UHGV virus genome: UHGV-0351052
Source of the DNA: a virus
DNA length: 64,000 nucleotides
Reading direction: 5' to 3' (one strand)
The notes below the pieces were generated by a model. It searched no databases, was not told the origin of the DNA, and worked only from the letters and a program-made list of their open reading frames with translations. The first letter of the stretch is position 1. Every line of letters begins with the position of its first letter. The position numbers and the translations under genes are program-made. This document shows, in pieces, positions 1 through 64,000 of this stretch.

Positions 1-1
1 A

Positions 2-136
2 AACCTTTCTTGGAAAGTTGCCGGGACAGTTGATTGGGACGTTGGTGGTGATTGGACAGAAAAAATGGCATCTATGAGTTCTATTTCATCTGGTCAATAC
101 ACAATTGATGGTAGCCGTGTGGATGTCGGGTTATAA
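2..136 (+). CDS. 5: Baseplate hub / tail lysozyme gp5, C-terminal end (partial, enters from upstream)
   Basis: Frame-2 translation ends ...MASMSSISSGQYTIDGSRVDVGL-stop, matching the C-terminal beta-helix tip of T4 gp5 as I recall it; position immediately upstream of gp5.4/gp6. Confidence 0.8.
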   Translation, partial: NLSWKVAGTVDWDVGGDWTEKMASMSSISSGQYTIDGSRVDVGL

Positions 137-154
137 ATAATTCAGAGGTAAATT

Positions 155-1018
155 ATGAAGAAATCCAAAACCATACAATTCCGTTACATTTATAAATCAA
201 CAGTAACCAACCCAAAGGGGTTGGTTCGAATATATATAGGAAAGCATGAATCCAGATATTTTAATCTAGAGGATGATAATTACGTAGGAAGCGGGGATTA
301 TATACAAAAGATTAAAAACAAACCAGGCTATGCTATAGATTTCGAAATTATCGAATTCGTTTCAACACTCGATGTTTTAAATGAAAGAGAAAAATTTTGG
401 ATATCTGAATATAGAAAAACAGGCCAGTGTGTTAATATAAAAGACGGTGGAGATGGATTTTCTTCAAACGATTTAAAACGAATGTGGTCTAATCCTGAGT
501 ATCGAGAAACTCAACTTAAAGCTTTGGCAAAAGGAAAATCTACAAAAGAATTTTCAGAGAAAATATCTAAAATAAACAAAGAAAGATGCGCATCGCCAGA
601 ATATCGAAAGAAAATGAGTAATGCGATGAAAACTGCTTTTGAAAATGATCCCACATTAAAAATTCGTATTTCTAATACTGTCAAATCTTTATGGAAATCC
701 GATGAATATAGAAACAAATTAATTAATCATCCAGGAAAAATAGAAGGAACGAAAAAATCCTGGAATAATCCTTTGATAAGAAAATCGAGATTAGATGCTA
801 GAAATAAAAAACTAAGATCAGTTGAACCTTGGATTAGTATAGAAAAAGTCAAAAAACTTTGGGAGGATTTGGGAAAACCTCATCCGCAGAAATATAAATG
901 GTTTAGAGAAAAAGCAATTGAACATAATCTACCGGATGTAAGTTATAACGCAATTTTAAAAGCATTGAAAAAATGTGATTATAAATTTACACCATTGGAG
1001 AATTCGATAATTGGCTAA
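155..1018 (+). CDS. GIY-YIG family endonuclease-like protein (free-standing homing-endonuclease-like gene) with C-terminal repeated W-x-N/S-P-E-Y-R modules
   Basis: N-terminus has YIY...YIGKH and NEREKFWISEY...N motifs typical of GIY-YIG nuclease domains; C-terminal half has about four degenerate repeats (WSNPEYRETQL, CASPEYRKKM, WKSDEYRNKL, WNNPLIRKSR) resembling DNA-binding modules of Seg-type endonucleases. Sits between gp5 and gp5.4. Confidence 0.6.
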   Translation: MKKSKTIQFRYIYKSTVTNPKGLVRIYIGKHESRYFNLEDDNYVGSGDYIQKIKNKPGYAIDFEIIEFVSTLDVLNEREKFWISEYRKTGQCVNIKDGGDGFSSNDLKRMWSNPEYRETQLKALAKGKSTKEFSEKISKINKERCASPEYRKKMSNAMKTAFENDPTLKIRISNTVKSLWKSDEYRNKLINHPGKIEGTKKSWNNPLIRKSRLDARNKKLRSVEPWISIEKVKKLWEDLGKPHPQKYKWFREKAIEHNLPDVSYNAILKALKKCDYKFTPLENSIIG

Positions 1019-1547
1019 TATACTTCCAATGAGCGCTGATTTAGGAGAATCCATGGAAGGTTCTTCTATCGACGTCACCTTTACCGCTCAATTAGAAACA
1101 GGTGAAACGTTAGTATCTATAAATATAACTAGTTACGAAGAAACTCCTGGGGTTTTAGTAGAAGAAAATCGCTTATATGGAACATATGAATCTGTATTTG
1201 GATTTGGAAATGACGCATTGAAATATCGTTTAGATGATGAATTTAAAACTGCTGCTTCATGGGAATACCTTCCAACTGATTCTAATACTCAGTTATATTT
1301 ATGGAAAGCTCCTCAAAACCTCCAGAAGACATTCACTTATGAAGTAACATTAATATATGACTACCAAGAGCAAAGTGAATCTGGGGGTTCTGGCAGTAAT
1401 TCTAGGTCATCTTCTGATACTACTGAACCAACCGATCCTCCAGCTCCAATAAGAAAAACTCTCGTTAAAAATTATACTAAAACTATAGTTGGAAATTGGA
1501 GCCGTTGGGCTAATAAATTAAGAAGCTACGTGTATGAGAGGCAATAA
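1011..1547 (+). CDS. Hypothetical protein (gene 5.1-like position), Ser/Gly/Thr-rich linker near C-terminus
   Basis: 178-aa ORF, overlaps upstream ORF by 8 nt and abuts gp5.4 start; no recognisable motif. Confidence 0.5.
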
Positions 1548-11319: not shown

Positions 11320-12866
11320 GTAACAATACATATCAGCACGTATCAAATGAATCAAAATATGTTAAATTCGATCCCACTGGATCGAATTTTCCTGGCACTG
11401 TTACGACAGTACAGTCTGCATTATCAAAAATAAGTAATATCGGCGTAAATGGTATTCCTGATGCAACTATGGAAGTTAAAGGAATAGCAATGATTGCATC
11501 AGAGCAAGAGGTTTTAGATGGAACAAATAATTCTAAAATCGTTACACCAGCTACATTAGCAACAAGATTATTGTATCCAAATGCTACTGAAACTAAATAT
11601 GGTTTAACGCGCTATTCAACAAATGAAGAAACATTAGAAGGCTCAGATAATAATTCATCAATAACGCCGCAAAAACTGAAATACCATACTGATGATGTGT
11701 TCCGAAATAGATATTCATCTGAGTCATCAAACGGGGTTATTAAAATATCATCTACGCCTGCAGCTTTGGCTGGTGTCGATGATACTACGGCGATGACTCC
11801 GTTGAAAACCCAAAAACTTGCAATAAAATTAATTTCACAAATAGCTCCTTCAGAAGACACTGCAACAGAATCTGTGAGAGGAGTAGTTCAATTATCTACT
11901 GTTGCACAAACTCGTCAAGGAACTCTCCGCGAAGGATATGCAATTTCCCCGTATACCTTTATGAATTCTGTTGCAACACAAGAATATAAGGGTGTTATAC
12001 GTCTAGGAACACAGACTGAAATTAATAATAATTTGGGGGATGTTGCAGTAACAGGTGAAACACTAAACGGTCGAGGAGCTACCGGTTCTATGCGTGGGGT
12101 AGTAAAATTAACGACGCAGGCCGGTATTGCCCCTGAAGGTGATAGCTCTGGAGCATTAGCATGGAACGCAGACGTAATTAATACTCGTGGTGGACAAACT
12201 ATTAATGGTTCTTTAAATTTAGATCATCTCACAGCAAATGGAATTTGGTCGCGCGGTGGAATGTGGAAAAATGGCGATCAGCCAGTTGCGACAGAACGTT
12301 ATGCATCAGAAAGAGTTCCGGTTGGGACTATTATGATGTTTGCAGGTGATTCAGCACCTCCAGGTTGGATTATGTGTCATGGTGGAACTGTGTCAGGAGA
12401 TCAATATCCTGATTATAGAAACACAGTTGGAGGAAGATTTGGTGGGGATTGGAATAATCCAGGGATTCCTGATATGCGAGGTCTTTTCGTCAGAGGAGCG
12501 GGCACAGGCGGTCATATTTTAAATCAACGGGGACAAGATGGTTATGGGAAGGATAGACTTGGCGTAGGATGTGACGGAATGCATGTTGGTGGTGTTCAAG
12601 CACAACAAATGTCATACCATAAACACGCCGGTGGTTGGGGGGAATATAACAGAAGTGAAGGCCCATTTGGCGCGTCTGTTTATCAAGGATATCTTGGAAC
12701 TAGAAAATATTCCGACTGGGATAACGCTTCATACTTCACCAATGATGGATTTGAATTAGGTGGACCAAGAGATGCCCTTGGTACACTTAATCGCGAAGGA
12801 TTAATTGGTTATGAAACTAGACCATGGAATATATCATTAAACTATATTATTAAAGTTCATTACTAA
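11316..12866 (+). CDS. 12: Short tail fiber protein gp12
   Basis: 516 aa with the Gly-rich C-terminal receptor-binding region; position after gp11. Confidence 0.85.
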
Positions 12867-27248: not shown

Positions 27249-27262
27249 TCTTTGACGATTTA

Positions 27263-27295
27263 AGGGACCTTCGGGTCCCTTTAGTTGTTTTTATG
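27263..27295 (+). terminator. Intrinsic terminator (AGGGACC-TTCG-GGTCCCT + T-rich tail)
   Basis: Perfect 7-bp stem with UUCG loop then TTAGTTGTTTTTA, directly after gp23. Confidence 0.75.
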
Positions 27296-27296
27296 G

Positions 27297-27304
27297 TATA
27301 AATA
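27297..27304 (+). promoter_or_regulatory. Late promoter box TATAAATA upstream of gp24
   Basis: Exact TATAAATA. Confidence 0.65.
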
Positions 27305-27331
27305 AATCATATAAACCAAAAGGAAAGCGCA

Positions 27332-32049: not shown

Positions 32050-32099
32050 AATATTTCCTCAGTATAAATATAGATATATTTATTACATGGTATTTAGAC

Positions 32100-33611
32100 A
32101 TGACTGACATTAAAGTACATTTTTATGATTTTAGTCACGTGAGAATTGATTGTGAAGAAAGTACATTTCATGAACTCCGTGATTTCTTTAGCTTTGAAGC
32201 TGATGGGTATCGTTTTAATCCGAAATACAGATATGGCCACTGGGATGGACGAATCCGTCTTTTAGATTATAATCGTCTTCTTCCATTCGGCTTAGTCGGG
32301 CAAATTAAAAAGTTCTGTGATAACTTTGGCTATAAAGCCTGGATTGACCCACAAATTAACGAAAAAGAAGAATTATCAAGAAAAGATTTTGATGAATGGC
32401 TTTCTAAGTTAGAAATCTATTCAGGAAATAAAAGAATTGAACCACACTGGTATCAAAAAGATGCAGTGTTCGAAGGATTAGTTAATCGTCGTAGAATTCT
32501 TAATCTTCCAACATCCGCTGGTAAATCGTTAATTCAAGCTTTGCTTGCGCGATATTATTTGGAAAATTATGAAGGTAAAATTCTTATCATTGTTCCAACA
32601 ACTGCTCTGACAACTCAGATGGCTGATGACTTTGTTGACTATCGTTTATTCAGTCATGCAATGATAAAGAAAATCGGTGGCGGAGCATCAAAAGATGATA
32701 AATATAAAAATGATGCACCAGTCGTTGTTGGTACATGGCAAACTGTAGTTAAACAACCGAAAGAATGGTTCTCACAGTTTGGAATGATGATGAATGATGA
32801 ATGTCATCTTGCTACAGGAAAAAGTATTTCATCTATCATATCAGGTTTAAATAACTGCATGTTTAAATTTGGTTTGTCTGGTTCATTACGTGATGGCAAA
32901 GCTAATATCATGCAGTATGTTGGAATGTTCGGTGAAATATTTAAGCCAGTAACGACTTCTAAATTAATGGAAGATGGACAAGTAACTGAGCTAAAAATTA
33001 ATAGTATTTTTCTTCGCTATCCAGATGAGTTCACTACTAAATTAAAGGGAAAAACTTATCAAGAAGAAATAAAAATTATTACTGGGCTCAGTAAAAGAAA
33101 TAAATGGATCGCTAAATTAGCTATTAAGCTTGCGCAAAAAGATGAAAACGCTTTTGTCATGTTTAAACATGTATCGCATGGTAAAGCTATTTTCGATTTA
33201 ATTAAAAATGAATACGATAAAGTTTATTACGTATCAGGGGAAGTTGATACCGAAACCCGCAACGTAATGAAAACCTTAGCTGAAAATGGTAAAGGAATAA
33301 TTATAGTAGCGAGTTATGGTGTATTTTCTACTGGTATTTCAGTTAAAAATCTGCATCATGTTGTTTTAGCGCACGGCGTTAAATCAAAAATCATTGTATT
33401 ACAAACAATCGGTCGTGTATTACGTAAGCATGGTTCTAAAACAGTCGCAACAGTCTGGGACCTCATAGATGATTGTGGCGTTAAGCCAAAATCTGCTAAT
33501 ACGAAAAAGAAATATGTCCATTTGAACTATCTTTTAAAACACGGCATTGATCGTATTCAGCGCTACGCAGATGAAAAATTTAATTACGTAATGAAAACAG
33601 TTAATTTATAA
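32100..33611 (+). CDS. uvsW: UvsW RNA-DNA / DNA helicase
   Basis: 503 aa with Walker A-like PTSAGKS and DECH box (MMNDECHL). Confidence 0.95.
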   Translation: MTDIKVHFYDFSHVRIDCEESTFHELRDFFSFEADGYRFNPKYRYGHWDGRIRLLDYNRLLPFGLVGQIKKFCDNFGYKAWIDPQINEKEELSRKDFDEWLSKLEIYSGNKRIEPHWYQKDAVFEGLVNRRRILNLPTSAGKSLIQALLARYYLENYEGKILIIVPTTALTTQMADDFVDYRLFSHAMIKKIGGGASKDDKYKNDAPVVVGTWQTVVKQPKEWFSQFGMMMNDECHLATGKSISSIISGLNNCMFKFGLSGSLRDGKANIMQYVGMFGEIFKPVTTSKLMEDGQVTELKINSIFLRYPDEFTTKLKGKTYQEEIKIITGLSKRNKWIAKLAIKLAQKDENAFVMFKHVSHGKAIFDLIKNEYDKVYYVSGEVDTETRNVMKTLAENGKGIIIVASYGVFSTGISVKNLHHVVLAHGVKSKIIVLQTIGRVLRKHGSKTVATVWDLIDDCGVKPKSANTKKKYVHLNYLLKHGIDRIQRYADEKFNYVMKTVNL

Positions 33612-42463: not shown

Positions 42464-42517
42464 TCCTCATGTTATGTCAGTAAGACTACTATAACACAAC
42501 ACGAGGGACTTGTAAAC
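42464..42517 (-). promoter_or_regulatory. 54-bp element, copy 1: early-promoter-like (GTTTAC -35, TATAGT -10) plus leader with SD; identical to copy at 57900-57953
   Basis: Minus strand reads GTTTACAAGTCCCTCGTGTTGTGTTATAGTAGTCTTACTGACATAACATGAGGA. Confidence 0.6.
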
Positions 42518-44574
42518 TACATTTTGAACTTTTTAGACATTCCATTGATGTTAACCAAAGAAGCTAAGATTTGAGAAACTTCATTTTCCTCTTCTTTTGA
42601 TTCTTCTACAAGGAATTGATTAAATCCAGCCATTGGACGAACTTCACCAGTTTCCATTAGATGGTCGCCATCATATACTGATTCTTCTAATTGTTCAGAA
42701 GGAGGAACGATTGTACCTTCGATTAGATACTTGTTATAAGCAGTTTCTTTCATAAAGTACGTACTTACTTTATTAATCTTCAGTAAAATTCCACGCGGTA
42801 GAATAACTTCAGCTTCTGATGGAAATCCTGATAAATGACCTGGAACGATAACTTTGATTCGCTCAGCTCCTTTAATTACCATACCCACGCTAGTTTCAGC
42901 ATCTTCATTAGCATATGTAGAATGACTACCCATATGCATCAAATCTTCTGCATCAACAGAACCTTCTCCTTCGCCAGAAAATACTGCACCGGAATCATCT
43001 AGAGCCATATAGTTTTTACCATGCTCACCGAAGATATTTGGTTTAAGCGATGTGGATACGAAGTTCTTGAAATAGAACATTTTGTTTTCAATGTTATGAC
43101 GCAAAGTTTTAAAGGTAACTTCTTGTCCACGATAAAGCGTAGTTCCTGGAGGAAGAACTGAACCTTTAGCGAATGCAGAATCCAACGTCTCGATGTGCTT
43201 AATGGCACGTTCCATATATTCTTCACGGGTAGAATCTGGTTTACCCAAGAGGAACGAGTTCATTTCAACATATGAATCTGCACAATAATCTTCAATTACA
43301 TCAGACTCAGCCTGAGTCAGTCCTTTTGGAGTTACTTCGGTGCTTGCGTATTCATATGCCTGAGCAGCAGATTCATTAATCAATTTATAAATGCCATTCA
43401 TGACAAATTGAATAATAGCTACCTTTTCGTCTGGTGTGGCTTTAGAACCTTTAACTAAATCATTGATAATTTTCTTAATAACATCAAAGCTATTAGAAAT
43501 ATTAATGTCAGCGAGATCGCTTAAAATTTTATCGGTTTTATAATCAAAGAATTCTTTATTCTTTAAATATTCTTGAGAACCTTGATGTGTTATATCGCTC
43601 TGCAGCCTGATAGACGGATCACGTAAACGCGCATGGGCCAATGCAATATGATTTCGGAAGCTTTCTAGTTCATAATCGTTAGATTTAAAACGAGAGGCAC
43701 TTCTCATACCACCGATAGCTCCTTTGCCGAAGTTTGAACCAATCTGGATAACGCCAGAATTCATTGGTCCTTCTGCTTTATATACCGGAACTTTAGATTC
43801 AAACTCTTGATATTTCTTGGCAGCGAAGCTATCACCCTGAAGTGAAGCATCGACAGTAGAATATTGAGCTTGTGCTGCTAATCGACGACTAATTTTAGTT
43901 TTCTGAATAACCGCTTGGTCAGTACGTTTATCATTTTCTAAAGCAATAGAAGCAGCAACAGCGACAGCTTTAGGAACAGCATTACCTGTTTTAACGTCTA
44001 CATAAACATCACCGACCTTCGATTCAACTTTTGTGAATAACTCAGTTGAAATAGGAGGTACACCTGGAATGTCTTCTAAATTGGCATTTTTACGGTAAAC
44101 CATAATATATGCATACTTTTTATCATAGTCCCAGATTTCCTTTAAAAGAACATAACGACCTGCTCCTTTAGTACGTACTAAACGGTCAGCAATAACTTGC
44201 ATTTGACGAGCAGCTCCATTTGTTTTACTTTTTAGTACGCGGAATAAGCATGCGTCAATTTTATACTGTTTCATTGTTTGAAGAGCAGTATCAAAAACCG
44301 CATTAATGACACCAATTGGATTTCCACCCAAGTTTTTAAGTTTAACTAATGATAGTTTCTCATTAACACCTATCATTACGATATGCATCATTTTATCGCC
44401 TGGCTTAACGTTTTTATTTGTATCACCGCCAGAGGTGTATGTACAAAATCTAAATCCAGGAAGCACGCTTTCTTCACCGGCTTGAATAGCAAAAATTTGA
44501 GGTATTTTATGCTTAGGATTTAAGTTAACAACCGGCGCCGAAGCGCCGTCAAATAATTCTGTAATAAGTTCCAT
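42517..44574 (-). CDS. Alt-like ADP-ribosyltransferase, paralog A (downstream copy)
   Basis: 685 aa; C-terminal region has R (TTLYRGQ), S-T-S (FVSTSL) and E-x-E (SEAEVILPRG) motifs of R-S-E class ADP-ribosyltransferases; N-terminus homologous to paralog B. Confidence 0.85.
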   Translation of the reverse strand: MELITELFDGASAPVVNLNPKHKIPQIFAIQAGEESVLPGFRFCTYTSGGDTNKNVKPGDKMMHIVMIGVNEKLSLVKLKNLGGNPIGVINAVFDTALQTMKQYKIDACLFRVLKSKTNGAARQMQVIADRLVRTKGAGRYVLLKEIWDYDKKYAYIMVYRKNANLEDIPGVPPISTELFTKVESKVGDVYVDVKTGNAVPKAVAVAASIALENDKRTDQAVIQKTKISRRLAAQAQYSTVDASLQGDSFAAKKYQEFESKVPVYKAEGPMNSGVIQIGSNFGKGAIGGMRSASRFKSNDYELESFRNHIALAHARLRDPSIRLQSDITHQGSQEYLKNKEFFDYKTDKILSDLADINISNSFDVIKKIINDLVKGSKATPDEKVAIIQFVMNGIYKLINESAAQAYEYASTEVTPKGLTQAESDVIEDYCADSYVEMNSFLLGKPDSTREEYMERAIKHIETLDSAFAKGSVLPPGTTLYRGQEVTFKTLRHNIENKMFYFKNFVSTSLKPNIFGEHGKNYMALDDSGAVFSGEGEGSVDAEDLMHMGSHSTYANEDAETSVGMVIKGAERIKVIVPGHLSGFPSEAEVILPRGILLKINKVSTYFMKETAYNKYLIEGTIVPPSEQLEESVYDGDHLMETGEVRPMAGFNQFLVEESKEEENEVSQILASLVNINGMSKKFKM

Positions 44575-54162: not shown

Positions 54163-54395
54163 AGTACGCCATACACCCTTTGTGCTTCAACTAATCCATC
54201 AAAATCCAATTTGAGATGTGTTATTTGATCGCCATCACCTGGATTCACAATTACTAATACTGAACGAGAAGTTTCGGTAATAACACGAACCGATGTTTCA
54301 GGAAATCGTTCAGAAACCTTATTTACCAATTCCTGAGCAAATAGTTTAACTTTTTCTTGGAATTCTTTAACAGTAATTGGTTTTTCGCTTAGCAT
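54159..54395 (-). CDS. Hypothetical protein (cd.2-like)
   Basis: 78-aa ORF. Confidence 0.55.
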   Translation of the reverse strand: MLSEKPITVKEFQEKVKLFAQELVNKVSERFPETSVRVITETSRSVLVIVNPGDGDQITHLKLDFDGLVEAQRVYGVL

Positions 54396-54559
54396 GTTGA
54401 TCCTAGCTCCTTACTTTCAACATTTTTAACTAATTTGACAGAAACTAATTCAGCATCTTGAGTAATCATTACCGGACCTTCTTCATACTCTTCAAGATAT
54501 TCTAGAGCTTTCTTTTTAGCTTCTTCCTTCGTATCAGTTTGAGCATAGATATAAAACAT
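54389..54559 (-). CDS. Possible small acidic ORF (56 aa), below the supplied track length cut-off
   Basis: Hand translation MFYIYAQTDTKEEAKKKALEYLEEYEEGPVMITQDAELVSVKLVKNVESKELGSTC; no clear SD; end overlaps downstream gene start. Confidence 0.3.
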   Translation of the reverse strand: MFYIYAQTDTKEEAKKKALEYLEEYEEGPVMITQDAELVSVKLVKNVESKELGSTC

Positions 54560-54576
54560 ACAACCAGTAATACCTA

Positions 54577-54918
54577 CTACTTTCCACTTAATTTCTTTAT
54601 CAGTTTTAATTTCAAATTTACTGACAGAATCATCTTTTTGAACTTCTTCGAAAAAAGAATATATTCTAACATATAAGCAATTGAAAATAACGGGCTATCT
54701 TTATAGGATTCGCCCATTACATCAATAGCTTTATACCAGCAGTCATCAATTTCGCGTTTAATGCTAATAACATTTTTCGCAGGATCTATTTTTACTTTAA
54801 ATGAATTTTCCCCAATAAACTGGGTGATTCGTTTATTAGCCCCGCAAGTTTCATTAAAAATATCTTTATATCCAGTTTTAAAGCGATAAACCTTATCTTC
54901 TTCAAACCATTCGCTCAT
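54577..54918 (-). CDS. Hypothetical protein (cd.4-like)
   Basis: 113-aa ORF. Confidence 0.55.
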   Translation of the reverse strand: MSEWFEEDKVYRFKTGYKDIFNETCGANKRITQFIGENSFKVKIDPAKNVISIKREIDDCWYKAIDVMGESYKDSPLFSIAYMLEYILFSKKFKKMILSVNLKLKLIKKLSGK

Positions 54919-55256: not shown

Positions 55257-55320
55257 ATTTACCTCACATAATTTTCTTCAAGCCAATTAATAATATCCCA
55301 AGTTTCATGATGCTACGCCA

Positions 55321-56521
<1,201 letters not shown>

Positions 56522-56525
<4 letters not shown>

Positions 56526-59571: not shown

Positions 59572-60074
59572 TTAAAAGTATTTTTTAAAACTCATCATAA
59601 CTTTATCATCAACATCATTATCAATCTGTGCAACAAGGTAAGATGACAGTTCTACTTCTTGTGGCGCGGATTGAACATTATCAGAATTAAGATATTCACG
59701 AATCCAAGGATACGGATGTTTAACCGGAGCATCGGTAATTGGGCATGGAAGACCACACTGTTTCATACGAGATACAGTTAAGTAATCAATAAAGCTCCAC
59801 ATGCTATTTGTATTTAATCCAGGAACATCGCCATCTTTAAATAAATGAACTGCCCAATCTTTTTCTTGGCGGTTAACTTCCATGAAAATATCAACTGCTT
59901 CTTGTTCACACTCTTGAGCAATTTTAACCCATTCATCACCATCAGTGCCAAGTTGAAGTTGACGAATAATATATTGAGTGCCTTTAAGGTGAAGCTGCTC
60001 ATCACGTGCAATGAACTTCATAATCTTGGCATTACCTTCCATGATTTCCATGTTCTTATGGAAGTTAAAGGTAC
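59572..60074 (-). CDS. nrdB: Ribonucleotide reductase small subunit NrdB, exon 2
   Basis: Encodes ...MEIMEGNAKIMKFIARDEQLH... (R2 conserved region) to C-terminus; boundary inferred by restoring the conserved YVSFAC-TFNF junction; uncertain by a few nt. Confidence 0.8.
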
Positions 60075-60668
60075 CGTTATGTTCAATTGAGCTCGCTAAT
60101 TCTCAACCCGTTCTCTTATGAACTGCTACATATTACTATGCAGACCAGACTATATCACAATCCCAGAGGGATTCTCCCCATTTCGAGTCGCTTGACCCTA
60201 CGTCCGAAGACTAGTCGTTGAACCTTGCTTTGCAATTGTCGCCGTGCCATCGTTTATATGTTGATGGTGATAAATCTTTCTTATCACAATATGGACAATT
60301 CAATTGAATTCTATTTGGATTTAATTTGCATCTGTCATTATGTTTTAAATAAAATCCAGGACCTTTACCAATGTGACCGCAGAAATCACATGTGATTTCT
60401 TTTTGTGCAGGATGGGTCCCGTTCTTAACCATTTCTAATGTTTTTGCTGATGTTCTTTTCTTATGGTCTTCCATCAGAATCTTTAGGTATAGGTCCGTTA
60501 GCATCTATCCAAATTTTTCTATAGTTCAATTGTGCATCCTCTTAAAAGTATAATCATATTATACTAATTAAAGGTGCAAGCAAAACCTTGGCTGCTAGTT
60601 TTCCTATAAAGGACTTTCCAGCAATTAAAGGAGTTTTCGATAAACGTTACCGTTTAAAGGCGCATTTT
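60075..60668 (-). mobile_element. Group I self-splicing intron in nrdB (about 594 nt) carrying a degenerate endonuclease ORF
   Basis: Interrupts nrdB between exon 1 (ending ...YVSFA + U) and exon 2; exon 1 ends in U and intron ends in G as expected for group I; boundaries inferred by protein alignment, not by structure modelling. Confidence 0.75.
60211..60504 (-). CDS. Intron-encoded truncated endonuclease-like ORF (I-TevIII-like remnant with Cys-rich zinc-finger-like segment)
   Basis: 97 aa with CDFCGH...CPYCDK; lies wholly within the intron. Confidence 0.65.
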   Translation of the reverse strand: MLTDLYLKILMEDHKKRTSAKTLEMVKNGTHPAQKEITCDFCGHIGKGPGFYLKHNDRCKLNPNRIQLNCPYCDKKDLSPSTYKRWHGDNCKARFND

Positions 60669-61344
60669 ACGCAAAAGATACATAAAAACGAATAGCTTCT
60701 AAGGCATTAATAACGTGCAAACAGAGGTAAAGAGATTTCATTAAAGCACGTTTAGCTTCGGCTTCTTGTTTAATAGCTCGGTTTAAACGAAAGACAGCAT
60801 CAGGAGATTCTTTAGCTAGTTCTACAAATTCTTTAGCATTTTCCCATTCACGGGTTTTAATCAGAACATCATCATAATAGCGTCCAATAGATTCGGCTCG
60901 TTTCATGATTGCTTCATCTAATACAATCTCATCAAATACCTTTGACGGATCAGTATAAAGATTTCGCATGATATGTGTATATGAACGGCTGTGAATAGTT
61001 TCACTAAAAGTCCACGTAGCAACCCATGTATCAAGGCTTGGGTCTGAAATTAATGACATAAGTACAGCAGACGGCGCACGACCCTGAATGCTATCCAAAA
61101 GTGATTGATACTTCAGATTATTAGTAAAAATATTTTGCTGATACTGAGGAAGCTTATTAAACTGTGCAGCATCCATCATTAAGTTTACTTCTTCGGGACG
61201 CCAGAAAAAACTGATCTGTCGCTCAATGAGTTCTTCAAATACTCGATGTCGTTGAATATCATATCGAGCTAAACCTAATCCAGAACCAAAGAACATCGGT
61301 TCATTCAAAACATCAACTGGATTTGTATTAAAAACTGTGCTCAT
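60669..61344 (-). CDS. nrdB: Ribonucleotide reductase small subunit NrdB, exon 1
   Basis: Begins MSTVFNTNPVDVLNEPMFFGSG...; ends at conserved EAIRFYVSFA. Confidence 0.85.
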
Positions 61345-61395
61345 AATTTTTCCTCTTAGTTAATAGATAGTGACTCGTCCGTGAGTCAAATTATA

Positions 61396-63660
61396 TCATA
61401 ATTTACAGGATGAACAGTCTTCAGCTTTTGGAGTTTCTATTTCATAATCATCAGTACCAGAACCATCACGGGTATTATGATAATAGAAATTTTTAATGCC
61501 ATAATACCATCCGTATAGCATGTCATCAATCATTATTGACATTGGAACCTTTCCTTTTGGAAAAATCTGCGGGTCATAATATGTATTCGCTGAAGCCGAT
61601 TGACATATCCATTTCAGCATAATAGCTACCTGCGTAAGATAAGGTTTATTACCTTTCTTAGCTAATTTCCATGTATAATCATAGAGGTCTATGTTATGCT
61701 CAATATTGGGCACGACTTGATTAAAGGAGCCCTCTTTTGATTCTTTAACAGAGACTGGTCCACGTGGAGGCTCGATACCGTTTGTACTGTTAGAAACTTG
61801 GGAAGATGACTCACACGGCATAAGTGCTGATAATGTGCTATTACGGATGCCAAAGAGCTTAAGGTCTTCCCGCAGCGACGACCAGTCACAAACGTATTTT
61901 GGAGCTGCGATTTGGTCAATCTTTTTATTGTACCAGTCGATAGGTAATTCGCCTCGAGACCAACGAGTGTCTGAATAATATTCGCAAGGTCCTTTTTCTT
62001 TGGCGAGCTTAATGGATGCTTTAATGAGTCCATACTGTAATCTCTCAAATAGTTCATGTGTTAAATCGTTAGCATCTTCATAAGAAGCAAAGTTACTTGC
62101 CAGCCAAGCTGCATAGTTAGTAACACCTACACCAAGGTTACGACGCTTTTTAGCTTTTTCTGCTTCAGGAACTGGATATCCTTGGTAATCCAAAAGATTA
62201 TCAAGAGCACGAACCTGGACTTCTGCCAATTCATTAATTTTATCTTGGTCTTGCCAGTCAAAATTATCCAGTACGAAGGCAGAGAGAGTACAGAGCCCAA
62301 TTTCAGCATCAGGACTATTCACATCATTTGTTGGAATAGCAATTTCACAGCACAAGTTACTCTGACGAATAGGTGCCTTTTCACGAATAAACGGAGTATA
62401 GTTATTCGTATTATCAATGAACTGCACATAAATCCTTGCTGTTCCTGAACGTTCAGTCATGAGCAATTCAAATAGTTCACGGGCTTTAATACGCTTTTTA
62501 CGAATATTAGGGTCTTTTTCTGCTGCTTCGTATAATTCACGGAAACGGTCTTGGTCTTTAAAATAAGAATAATAAAGCTCTCCGCCCATTTCATGGGGAC
62601 TGAACAAAGTAATGTAATCGTTCTTTCCAAAACGTTCCATCATCAAATCATTCAGTTGAACACCATAATCCATATGACGAATGCGGTTTTCTTCTACGCC
62701 TTTGTTATTTTTCAAAACAAGAAGATTTTCAACTTCCAAATGCCAAATAGGATAATAAGCAGTAGCAGCGCCGCCACGAATTCCACCCTGTGAGCATGAT
62801 TTAACAGCAGTCTGAAAATGTTTCCAAAAAGGAATAACACCAGTATGGCGTACTTCACCCATGCCAATCTTAGAACCTTCGGCACGAATCATACCAACGT
62901 TAATACCGATTCCAGCTCGTTTGGAAATATATTCAACAATTGAAGCAGAAGCCTTATTGATAGACTTCAGTGAATCGCCTGCCTCAATAACAACGCATGA
63001 ACTAAACTGCCGAGTTGGAGTACGGCAACCAGCCATAATAGGAGTTGGTAATGAAATCTGTCGAGTAGATACTGCTTCATAAAAACGGATAACATGTTTT
63101 AATCTATCAACAGGTTCATCTTGATGCAGTGCCATTCCAATAGCCATAAATGCAAACTGTGGAGTTTCATAAATTTGACCAGTGGTTTTATCTTTAACTA
63201 AATATTTTTCTTTTAATTGCATCGCCCCGGAATAAGTAAATTCCATATCCCGTTCGTGCTTAATTTTTGATTCTAAAAATGTAATTTCTTCTGCTGAATA
63301 TTTTGACAATAATTCAGGGTCATATTTACCTTCATTTACACAGTAAGAAATATGGTCAATAAATGAACGTGGTTCATACTGCCCATAAACATGCTTACGA
63401 AGAGCGAACATTAAACAGCGTGCAGCTACATATTGATAATCAGGTTCTTCAACCGAAATAGAATTCGCAGCGGCCTTAATGACAATAGTCTGAATATCAT
63501 CAGTTGTCATTCCATCACGGAGATAAGATTTAATATTTTCATATAATTCATAAGGATCTACTGATGTTCCTTCAGCTGCCCAAGATAAAACTTTAATAAT
63601 TTTTTGTGGGTCAAAGCTCTGAGAAACACCACTACTTTTGATAACATTAATTAATTGCAT
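61396..63660 (-). CDS. nrdA: Ribonucleotide reductase large subunit NrdA
   Basis: Start at MQLINVIKSSGVSQSFDPQKI gives 754 aa; track ORF has a 32-codon upstream extension that overlaps the divergent promoter region. Confidence 0.95.
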   Translation of the reverse strand: MQLINVIKSSGVSQSFDPQKIIKVLSWAAEGTSVDPYELYENIKSYLRDGMTTDDIQTIVIKAAANSISVEEPDYQYVAARCLMFALRKHVYGQYEPRSFIDHISYCVNEGKYDPELLSKYSAEEITFLESKIKHERDMEFTYSGAMQLKEKYLVKDKTTGQIYETPQFAFMAIGMALHQDEPVDRLKHVIRFYEAVSTRQISLPTPIMAGCRTPTRQFSSCVVIEAGDSLKSINKASASIVEYISKRAGIGINVGMIRAEGSKIGMGEVRHTGVIPFWKHFQTAVKSCSQGGIRGGAATAYYPIWHLEVENLLVLKNNKGVEENRIRHMDYGVQLNDLMMERFGKNDYITLFSPHEMGGELYYSYFKDQDRFRELYEAAEKDPNIRKKRIKARELFELLMTERSGTARIYVQFIDNTNNYTPFIREKAPIRQSNLCCEIAIPTNDVNSPDAEIGLCTLSAFVLDNFDWQDQDKINELAEVQVRALDNLLDYQGYPVPEAEKAKKRRNLGVGVTNYAAWLASNFASYEDANDLTHELFERLQYGLIKASIKLAKEKGPCEYYSDTRWSRGELPIDWYNKKIDQIAAPKYVCDWSSLREDLKLFGIRNSTLSALMPCESSSQVSNSTNGIEPPRGPVSVKESKEGSFNQVVPNIEHNIDLYDYTWKLAKKGNKPYLTQVAIMLKWICQSASANTYYDPQIFPKGKVPMSIMIDDMLYGWYYGIKNFYYHNTRDGSGTDDYEIETPKAEDCSSCKL

Positions 63661-63685: not shown

Positions 63686-63693
63686 TATAAATA
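63686..63693 (+). promoter_or_regulatory. Late promoter box TATAAATA upstream of the I-TevI-like gene
   Basis: Exact TATAAATA, followed by AGGAGA SD and ATG at 63716. Confidence 0.55.
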
Positions 63694-63715: not shown

Positions 63716-64000
63716 ATGAAATCTGGAATATATGCTATTATAAACACTAAAACCAATAAGCACTATATAGGAAGTGCAATTAATTTTGAAGAACGATGGA
63801 AACGACACTTTAAAGATTTAGATAATGGAAATCATCATTCAATAAAGCTGCAGCGTTCTTATAATAAGCATGGGAAAGATGCTTTCGTATGTAAAATCAT
63901 AGAAGAACTTCCATACGAAAAATCTATCATTATTGAACGTGAAAATTATTGGATACATGAATATGACTCAAAGGAAAATGGGTATAATATAGCAGACGCA
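63716..64000 (+). CDS. I-TevI-like GIY-YIG homing endonuclease, N-terminal part (partial, runs off window end)
   Basis: Hand translation MKSGIYAIINTKTNKHYIGSAINFEERWKRHFKDLDNGNHHSIKLQRSYNKHGKDAFVCKIIEELPYEKSIIIERENYWIHEYDSKENGYNIADA: GIY...YIG, R, H, E and N catalytic-domain landmarks, very similar to I-TevI as I recall it. Confidence 0.8.
   Translation, partial: MKSGIYAIINTKTNKHYIGSAINFEERWKRHFKDLDNGNHHSIKLQRSYNKHGKDAFVCKIIEELPYEKSIIIERENYWIHEYDSKENGYNIADA

Follow-up and report, generated by a model that had tools for sequence, protein, structure and literature searches.

The open reading frame (ORF) at positions 155-1018 of the 64,000-nucleotide stretch of viral DNA analyzed here (UHGV virus genome UHGV-0351052; hereafter the window) encodes an uncharacterized member of the T4 Seg (GIY-YIG) family and is not a new kind of system. 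In our assessment it is probably (roughly 0.78) a free-standing Seg-family homing endonuclease which homes at the junction of genes 5 and 5.1, with the "seg-like" ORF142 of phage T6 representing another allele. Literature searches revealed neither a name for the gene nor a characterization of it. The main features of the locus, with coordinates given as positions in the window, are as follows:

110-136, plus strand: recoded 3' end of gene 5, GGT AGC CGT GTG GAT GTC GGG TTA TAA
131-138, plus strand: left copy of the 8-bp direct repeat TTATAAAT, a deletion end-point in the scar alleles
132-139, plus strand: late-promoter motif of the T4 type, TATAAATA; lies 15 nt ahead of the ATG and overlaps the new Leu and stop codons of gp5
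145-148, plus strand: Shine-Dalgarno-like GAGG, 6 nt ahead of the ATG at 155, read from the sequence
155-1018, plus strand: endonuclease ORF with an ATG start, 287 aa, stop codon included in the coordinates; Seg-type GIY-YIG homing endonuclease gene as judged from family matches and homolog alignments
179-454, plus strand: GIY-YIG nuclease domain, residues 9-100, with Tyr13, Tyr27, Gly29, His31, Tyr43-x-Gly-Ser-Gly47, Glu79, and Asn94
205-226, plus strand: hairpin with a 9-bp stem, AACCAACCC-AAAG-GGGTTGGTT, codons 17-24
464-820, plus strand: helical array of about six 17-residue NUMOD3-like repeat units, residues 104-222, with unit starts at residues 111, 128, 145, 162, 180, and 203
485-505, 587-607, 692-712, and 761-781, plus strand: well-preserved W/C-x-(N/S)-(P/D)-(E/L)-(Y/I)-R motifs, WSNPEYR (residue 111), CASPEYR (145), WKSDEYR (180), and WNNPLIR (203)
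800-970, plus strand: C-terminal helical domain, residues 216-272, common to T4 SegA and SegF
979-986, plus strand: right copy of TTATAAAT, within the 3' end of the ORF
1010-1018, plus strand: ATT GGC TAA, with which gene 5 originally ended (last two codons and stop; T4 79678-79686); right junction of the insertion
1053-1547, plus strand: gene 5.1, the true downstream neighbor, starting with ATG
1548-1841: gene 5.4 (PAAR), following gene 5.1 and itself followed by gene 6

The earlier note on this DNA, made from the sequence alone, had delimited the ORF identically and described it as a free-standing gene wedged between gp5 and gp5.4. Its free-standing nature is supported, as the ORF lies outside any intron or intein and a search of the whole window against Rfam at gathering thresholds returned no match, hence no Rfam intron. 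The placement was wrong on two counts. The ORF follows the end of gene 5 and is followed by gp5.1 (PHROG 1168, E 6e-72; T4 and T6 annotation, T4 map), and comparison of the junctions with T4 shows that the insertion lies not between genes but within the 3' end of the tail-spike gene 5 of a T4-like phage. Identity with the T4 genes repEA and repEB was considered and rejected, since those are small, are encoded on the opposite strand, and lie within gene 5.

BLAST aligned window positions 1-111 with T4 79554-79664, the 111 nt upstream of the recoded end being 97% identical to T4, and positions 1010 onward with T4 79678 onward; T4 has nothing between the two matches. T4 gene 5 ends with GAT GGA TCG AGG ATT GAC ATT GGC TAA, and in the window the same GAT is followed by the recoded codons listed above, in which 12 of 21 nt are changed; the serine codon, for instance, switches from TCG to AGC. 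The recoding preserves the peptide G-S-R-(I/V)-D-(I/V)-G and adds one Leu, and the new TTA TAA codons form part of TATAAATA. The ORF ends with ...ATA ATT GGC TAA, that is, with the original end of gene 5 read in frame. The element was inserted two codons ahead of the gene 5 stop and carries recoded substitute codons. The triplets GGT AGC CGT are common to the window, T6, and a more divergent third allele (L013), and the recoded gp5 end was found only in 34 carrier records and four scar records.

The window contains TATAAATA 21 times, compared with an expectation of 9.1, and no shuffle reached this count. Together with the ribosome-binding site the motif is kept in three alleles (T6, F2, and L013 were compared), and the record of phage fPS-2 annotates its copy as 'predicted late promoter'. 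We infer by analogy that the copy at 132-139 acts as a promoter for late expression of the endonuclease gene, the timing that would be expected from SegF, SegG, SegE, and I-TevI. The right copy of the direct repeat, in the form TATAAATT, is a near-consensus late-promoter motif located 66 nt upstream of the gene 5.1 start. Folding of positions 95-235 gave no convincing RNA structure sequestering the ribosome-binding site of the kind found in I-TevI and segB; it showed a weak A-U helix near this site, with the Shine-Dalgarno sequence in a loop. In a scan of positions 1-2000 for sigma-70 promoters and terminators, promoter-like sites were no commoner than in shuffles, and nothing of note was returned apart from the inverted repeat at 205-226. 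In the T6 allele, the stem of this hairpin survives three double-sided changes, all at synonymous third positions, and L013 retains 8 bp of it. The homologous codons of T4 segF also form a hairpin, accompanied by a U-tract, and we take this segF hairpin to be the intrinsic terminator reported in the 5' end of the segF coding region (Edgell et al. 2010, review; PMC2988022). The window hairpin lacks a U-tract; a weak T-rich tail follows its stem when the minus strand is read.

A GIY-YIG-type catalytic domain, proposed in the earlier note, was borne out by a match of the ORF protein to PHROG_314 ('homing endonuclease', E 4e-24) and by a family profile, comprising the ORF and eight homologs, that matches the entire catalytic domain of I-TevI (residues 4-93, E 4e-8). 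Not every model recognized the protein: Pfam GIY-YIG (PF01541), SegE_GIY-YIG (PF19835), and NUMOD3 had no match to it at E<=1, and TIGR01453 ('group I intron endonuclease') scored 25 bits, under its cut-off. A single-sequence phmmer search against PDB sequences gave I-TevI with E 0.2, and Foldseek comparison of the whole model with the PDB gave nothing with E <= 0.001. Members of the family alignment do match Pfam GIY-YIG, SegE_GIY-YIG, NUMOD3, and I-TevI_DNA-bd; PF01541 and PF19835 each match three of the nine close-search homologs.

Positions Y13, Y27, G29, Y43, G45, G47, E79, I83, N94, G98, and G99 are invariant in a 122-sequence alignment. The tyrosine pair of the hairpin, Y-I-Y13 ... Y27-I-G29, aligns with Y6 and Y17 of I-TevI; Glu79, located in 'NEREKFWI' against 'IERENFWI' in I-TevI, corresponds to the metal-binding Glu (E75), and the invariant Asn94 is the counterpart of N90. 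The ORF protein has the alpha/beta fold of the GIY-YIG superfamily. Its AlphaFold2 model has a mean pLDDT of 76.6, with most of residues 9-100 and 131-180 above 90; it is poor after residue 190, and the C-terminal third is of low confidence.

The earlier note had named the catalytic Arg and Glu as the positions on which this assignment turned. Glu79 is present and invariant, but the catalytic R27 of I-TevI has no Arg opposite it in the ORF protein, the family profile being gapped across the helix that contains R27; R34 lies near this position and is not conserved in SegF or more distant homologs. Each of the T4 proteins SegA-G shows the same gap in the alignment, and SegA, SegB, SegC, SegE, SegF, and SegG are listed as active endonucleases (Table 1 in Edgell et al. 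2010; PMC2988022), so that the unaligned Arg appears to be a family trait and not a sign of decay. Nuclease activity is proposed by analogy with other Seg proteins, since no Arg aligns with R27. Further family features lie in the same region: the 'YIGKHES ... YVGSG' stretch aligns with SegA-F, and both G-x-H-[ST] after YIG and Y-x-G-S-G at the position of the R27 helix are common to the ORF and SegA-F, SegG departing from both.

Behind the nuclease domain, the earlier note had recognized four degenerate repeats built around W-x-(N/S)-P-E-Y-R. They are real: among 20,000 protein shuffles the four-motif pattern was matched zero times in 19,987, once in 13, and never more often, and in local alignments of the repeat segments two segment pairs scored above 2,000 of 2,000 shuffles. 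The description of the unit needed correction. The four motifs are separated by 34, 35, and 23 residues, and residue 145 has C, not W. A HMMER scan of 1.84 billion representative proteins yielded 1,861 relatives at E<=1e-3 (two of them at E<=1e-30), and in the best 149 of these 1,861 the commonest intervals between motifs are 17 (72 cases), 34 (35 cases), and 51 residues (12 cases), which argues for a true unit of 17 residues; about six units are present, four of them well preserved, the alternate units having degenerated. The repeats are predicted to be helical, with pLDDT of 74-95 over residues 101-190.

Pfam domains detected in the best 149 of the 1,861 relatives comprise GIY-YIG (49 proteins), SegE_GIY-YIG (31), NUMOD3 (26), HNH / HNH_3 (5), DUF559 (2), and TnsA-like, endonuclease I, REase_MTES, Mom, and SET (1 each). 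The 17-residue unit is thus found fused to GIY-YIG, HNH, DUF559, TnsA-like, endonuclease I, Mom, and SET domains, and this pattern of fusions supports the earlier proposal that the repeats may form a modular DNA-binding array. NUMOD3 is the minor-groove-binding helix of I-TevI, I-HmuI, and I-BmoI (PMC3664794). The repeat resembles NUMOD3 (PF07460) in its 17-residue period, in the core x-E-x-(R/K)-x-K-(I/M)-S-x-x-x-K, and in its occurrence with several nuclease families, and differs in that the G-K-x-H-S unit start is replaced in the ORF by W-x-(D/N)-P-E-Y-R. Pfam NUMOD3 matches fall in the repeat region of two relatives, one of which, P0147, has its match at residues 109-120, overlapping a W-x-N-P-E-x-R unit. 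A home-made HMM of the NUMOD3 unit gave weak matches 17 residues apart, at <=6.6 bits and inside the range of shuffled sequences. We therefore term the repeat NUMOD3-like and not NUMOD3, given the weakness of these matches and the silence of Pfam.

A broader reading, which we regard as improbable, holds that the W-x-(D/N)-P-E-(Y/F)-R tandem repeat is an uncatalogued DNA-reading array distinct from NUMOD3, recruited repeatedly by at least six domain types (GIY-YIG, HNH, DUF559, TnsA-like, Mom, and SET). At present, Pfam detects this repeat only via cross-hits of the GerD model, which we take to be spurious, and arrays in relatives contain up to 13 units. If this reading were true, and if the units contacted a set number of base pairs predictably, the arrays would be a natural, possibly re-programmable scaffold for DNA targeting.

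The last ~60 residues of the ORF protein resemble the C-termini of SegA and SegF. This C-terminal helical domain is possibly a helix-turn-helix DNA-binding module; a homolog search with the C-terminal 75 residues alone gave no candidates.

Among characterized T4 proteins, SegF and SegB are the best-scoring relatives. SegF (45 bits, 27% identity) gives the longest alignment (237 aa), which extends from the GIY-YIG domain as far as the C-terminal one, and SegB has an equal score. SegF is likewise free-standing and resembles the ORF protein in 'TPKG...Y.GKHES...Y.GSG' and in the C-terminal 'LWxxLGKP' region. In contrast, SegF lacks four clear W-x-N-P-E-Y-R units, performs intronless homing into gene 56, a locus and target other than those of the window ORF, and has been described as a promoter-less cassette, whereas the window gene has its own late-promoter motif. 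SegB has one 'WSTPEYREK' unit behind its GIY-YIG domain, and SegA has the C-terminal helical domain in common with the ORF protein (37% identity over 59 aa); both differ from it in overall identity (<30%) and in their loci and targets (tRNA cluster; uvsX). I-TevI, the td intron endonuclease (structures 1LN0/1MK0 and 1I3J), is intron-encoded, unlike the window ORF, in which neither the R27 helix nor the zinc finger or the NUMOD1 helix-turn-helix of I-TevI was detected.

The closest named counterpart is the T6 'seg-like' ORF (T6ncORF142, AXN58183.1), which has 87.5% protein identity to the window ORF and shares its insertion site, the recoded gp5 end, the late-promoter motif, and the ORF architecture. 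Copies of the T6-type ORF occur in ACG-C40, PYPS2T, fPS-2, vB_SsoM_113, and others, and some of these records are annotated 'putative Seg-like homing endonuclease, GIY-YIG family'. The DNA-binding part of the T6 protein is ~95% identical to that of the window ORF, whereas its catalytic domain (~72% nt and ~75% aa identity) represents another, old allele; the window allele sides with F2, ZQ3, and the CEV1 contigs, not with T6.

A survey of 50,697 phage records revealed a presence/absence polymorphism at the same site: 33 records contain the full-length gene, four contain a deletion scar, and 482 contain an intact T4-type site, which in 465 cases has >=99% identity over 87 nt. T4 lacks the gene, and T6 carries it under the annotation "seg-like". 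About 6% of related genomes are carriers, although the presumed target is near-universal. Most carriers (30 of 33) have the T6-type gene, with ~84% nt identity to that of the window; the remaining three (F2 in two records, and ZQ3) have 97.5%, and two CEV1 draft contigs match the window gene at 99-100%, so that the window probably belongs to CEV1 or a near-identical phage. As in the Seg family, a free-standing gene is present or absent at one exact site among close phages. In five Tequatrovirus records, T4_ev151 (L001), SP21535, CJY920, LH2, and Manna, the endonuclease gene precedes gene 5.1 and segC follows it, so that gene 5.1 is flanked there by two homing-endonuclease insertion sites.

The scar alleles have the recoded gp5 end fused at TTATAAAT to the final 37 nt of the ORF, the 848 bp between the copies at 131-138 and 979-986 being deleted and the copies joined exactly. 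Scars were found in ESh36 (L003, positions 588-712), LF73P1 (L014, about 390-470), 215Ecol030PP, and LF73P3. They do not represent the ancestral empty site, a possibility that was rejected, as they hold the recoded gp5 end plus ATTGGCTAA, a remnant of the T4-type end; they also keep 28 nt of the ORF 3' end beyond the repeat copy, and this combination leaves insertion followed by deletion as the only origin for the scar. The scar of LF73P1 is of the window type on its left side and of the T6 type on its right. There are thus two haplotypes of the scar, a mosaic one and another, which suggests that the 8-bp repeat underwent deletion more than once or that recombination followed the deletion.

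Intact alleles are mosaic too. Compared with F2, the window gene is 100% identical over nt 101-550 and ~99% identical over nt 601-1000 (97.5-100% in the overall range), and the F2 flanks are only about 75% identical to those of the window. Compared with T6, identity is 92-100% in the flanks and in the DNA-binding half and only ~72% (nt) in the nuclease half, and a 50-nt patch at nt 551-600 is T6-like. On these nucleotide comparisons, the window gene is a mosaic of F2-type and T6-type alleles whose domains have recombined.

These observations fit the homing cycle that we propose for the gene. The protein would consist of an N-terminal GIY-YIG nuclease tethered to NUMOD3-like units and a SegA/SegF-like C-terminal domain, and would bind DNA, by analogy with its relatives, through the repeat array and the C-terminal domain. 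In a mixed infection, the enzyme would cut the near-invariant gene 5 / 5.1 junction of non-carriers (T4 ~79650-79720), and double-strand-break repair would copy the gene with short flanks into the cut genome, a process corresponding to the intronless homing described for SegF and SegG. Splitting of the site by the insertion, together with the recoding of the adjacent 21 nt, would protect the carrier genome. Later decay would proceed by deletion between the TTATAAAT repeats, leaving a scar with a recoded, presumably resistant, gp5 end. Mosaic flanks, the linked recoded flank, and scar alleles are all seen in genomes. In the papers on SegF and SegG, Seg enzymes are said to be able to cut hundreds of base pairs from the insertion point. 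The recoded stretch could, on another reading, be flanking DNA co-converted from a divergent donor and not an immunity determinant.

Several observations could be expected of a decayed or domesticated relative of homing endonucleases which no longer cuts DNA but still binds it, and which might, for instance, regulate late genes close to the start of gene 5.1 or at its own promoter: no residue aligns with Arg27 of I-TevI, the Pfam nuclease models are silent on the ORF protein, the gene is rare despite its near-universal target, and I-TevI has a second role as a repressor, binding an operator that overlaps its late promoter (PMC2988022). We nevertheless give this explanation only about one chance in ten. 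The residues Tyr, Tyr, Glu, and Asn are invariant, and the six T4 Seg proteins listed as active have the same Arg-less layout (PMC2988022, Table 1). Moreover, the catalytic domain is under strong purifying selection despite saturated synonymous sites: Nei-Gojobori estimates for the window and T6 alleles gave pS 0.81 and pN 0.155 over residues 1-103, dN/dS 0.07-0.10 for the remainder, and an overall dN/dS of about 0.1, from which it follows that both alleles have long been kept as working proteins. The patterns of presence and absence, mosaicism, and scars are those of an active mobile gene.

Slightly less probable still is that the nuclease is kept mainly for the benefit of the phage, through exclusion of competitors by cutting elsewhere or through recombination or amplification of useful loci. 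T6 SegB, reported to promote the amplification of anti-defense loci in cis and in trans (PMC13096335), provides a precedent, and the gene is under purifying selection in several phage species; however, nothing at the locus indicates a second target, the exact-site polymorphism and the linked recoded flank are most simply explained by homing here, and a benefit to the phage would supplement homing without replacing it. That the ORF is not a GIY-YIG protein at all and resembles one by a chance match of short motifs, as the missing Pfam and Foldseek matches and the E of 0.2 in the single-sequence PDB search might suggest, is very improbable.

The content of homing endonucleases elsewhere in the window also differs from that of T4, as the earlier note had supposed. 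Its supposition that segD, segE, and mobE are missing was confirmed by BLAST against T4, which showed segC+5.3 and nrdB.1 to be absent too; the corresponding intervals are 27259-27320 for segD (~60 nt), 32086-32106 for segE (~20 nt), and 61344-61400 for nrdB.1 and mobE (~56 nt), and the T4 positions of these genes agree with those published (Edgell et al. 2010; PMC2988022). Two further items had been overlooked. The region 59572-61344 aligns over its whole length with T4 nrdB at 94.3% identity, intron and I-TevIII remnant included, and the nrdB intron therefore appears to be present; Rfam at the gathering threshold reported no group I intron in the whole window, the nrdB region included. At 63716-64000 (plus strand), an ORF which runs past the window end begins with an I-TevI-like GIY-YIG N-terminus (MKSGIYAIINTKTNKHYIGS...ERENYWIHEY...). 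It has ~70% nt identity to T4 I-TevI, adjoins nrdA but is encoded on the other strand, and follows TATAAATA at 63686-63693 and an AGGAG; it appears to be a free-standing I-TevI paralog located where T4 has nrdA.1.

Other differences from T4 were found along the window. About 1.7 kb of extra DNA holds a full-length 685-aa ORF (42517-44574, minus strand) at a position where T4 has only the alt.-1/alt.-2 remnants, and its 69% nt identity to T4 alt in BLAST suggests that it may be an alt paralog. Small ORFs of 56, 113, and 100 aa lie in DNA absent from T4 at 54389-54918 and 56223-56525 (both minus strand), between cd.2/cd.3 and between pseT/pseT.1, and near 55290 about 320 bp of T4 (cd.4/cd.5 region) are missing. 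Within gene 12 (short tail fiber), positions 12178-12714 have no BLAST match to T4, with flanks 90-95% identical, and probably constitute a host-range-related variable region.

The anatomy of the gene 5 insertion is neat but unsurprising, given that the gene is already annotated 'seg-like', and our findings leave the current understanding of homing endonucleases unchanged. They add one uncharacterized free-standing homing endonuclease to the T-even set. Since hundreds of T4-like phages have the presumed target in identical form, the enzyme could serve as a tool for marker rescue or genome engineering. The homing life cycle is visible in public genomes, in the form of the intact site, two old domain-mosaic alleles, and deletion scars. 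The element has invaded an essential tail-spike gene at the end of its coding region and brought recoded replacement codons, and it offers a clean natural example of a selfish gene that does its host gene no harm and, probably, leaves its own genome uncut.
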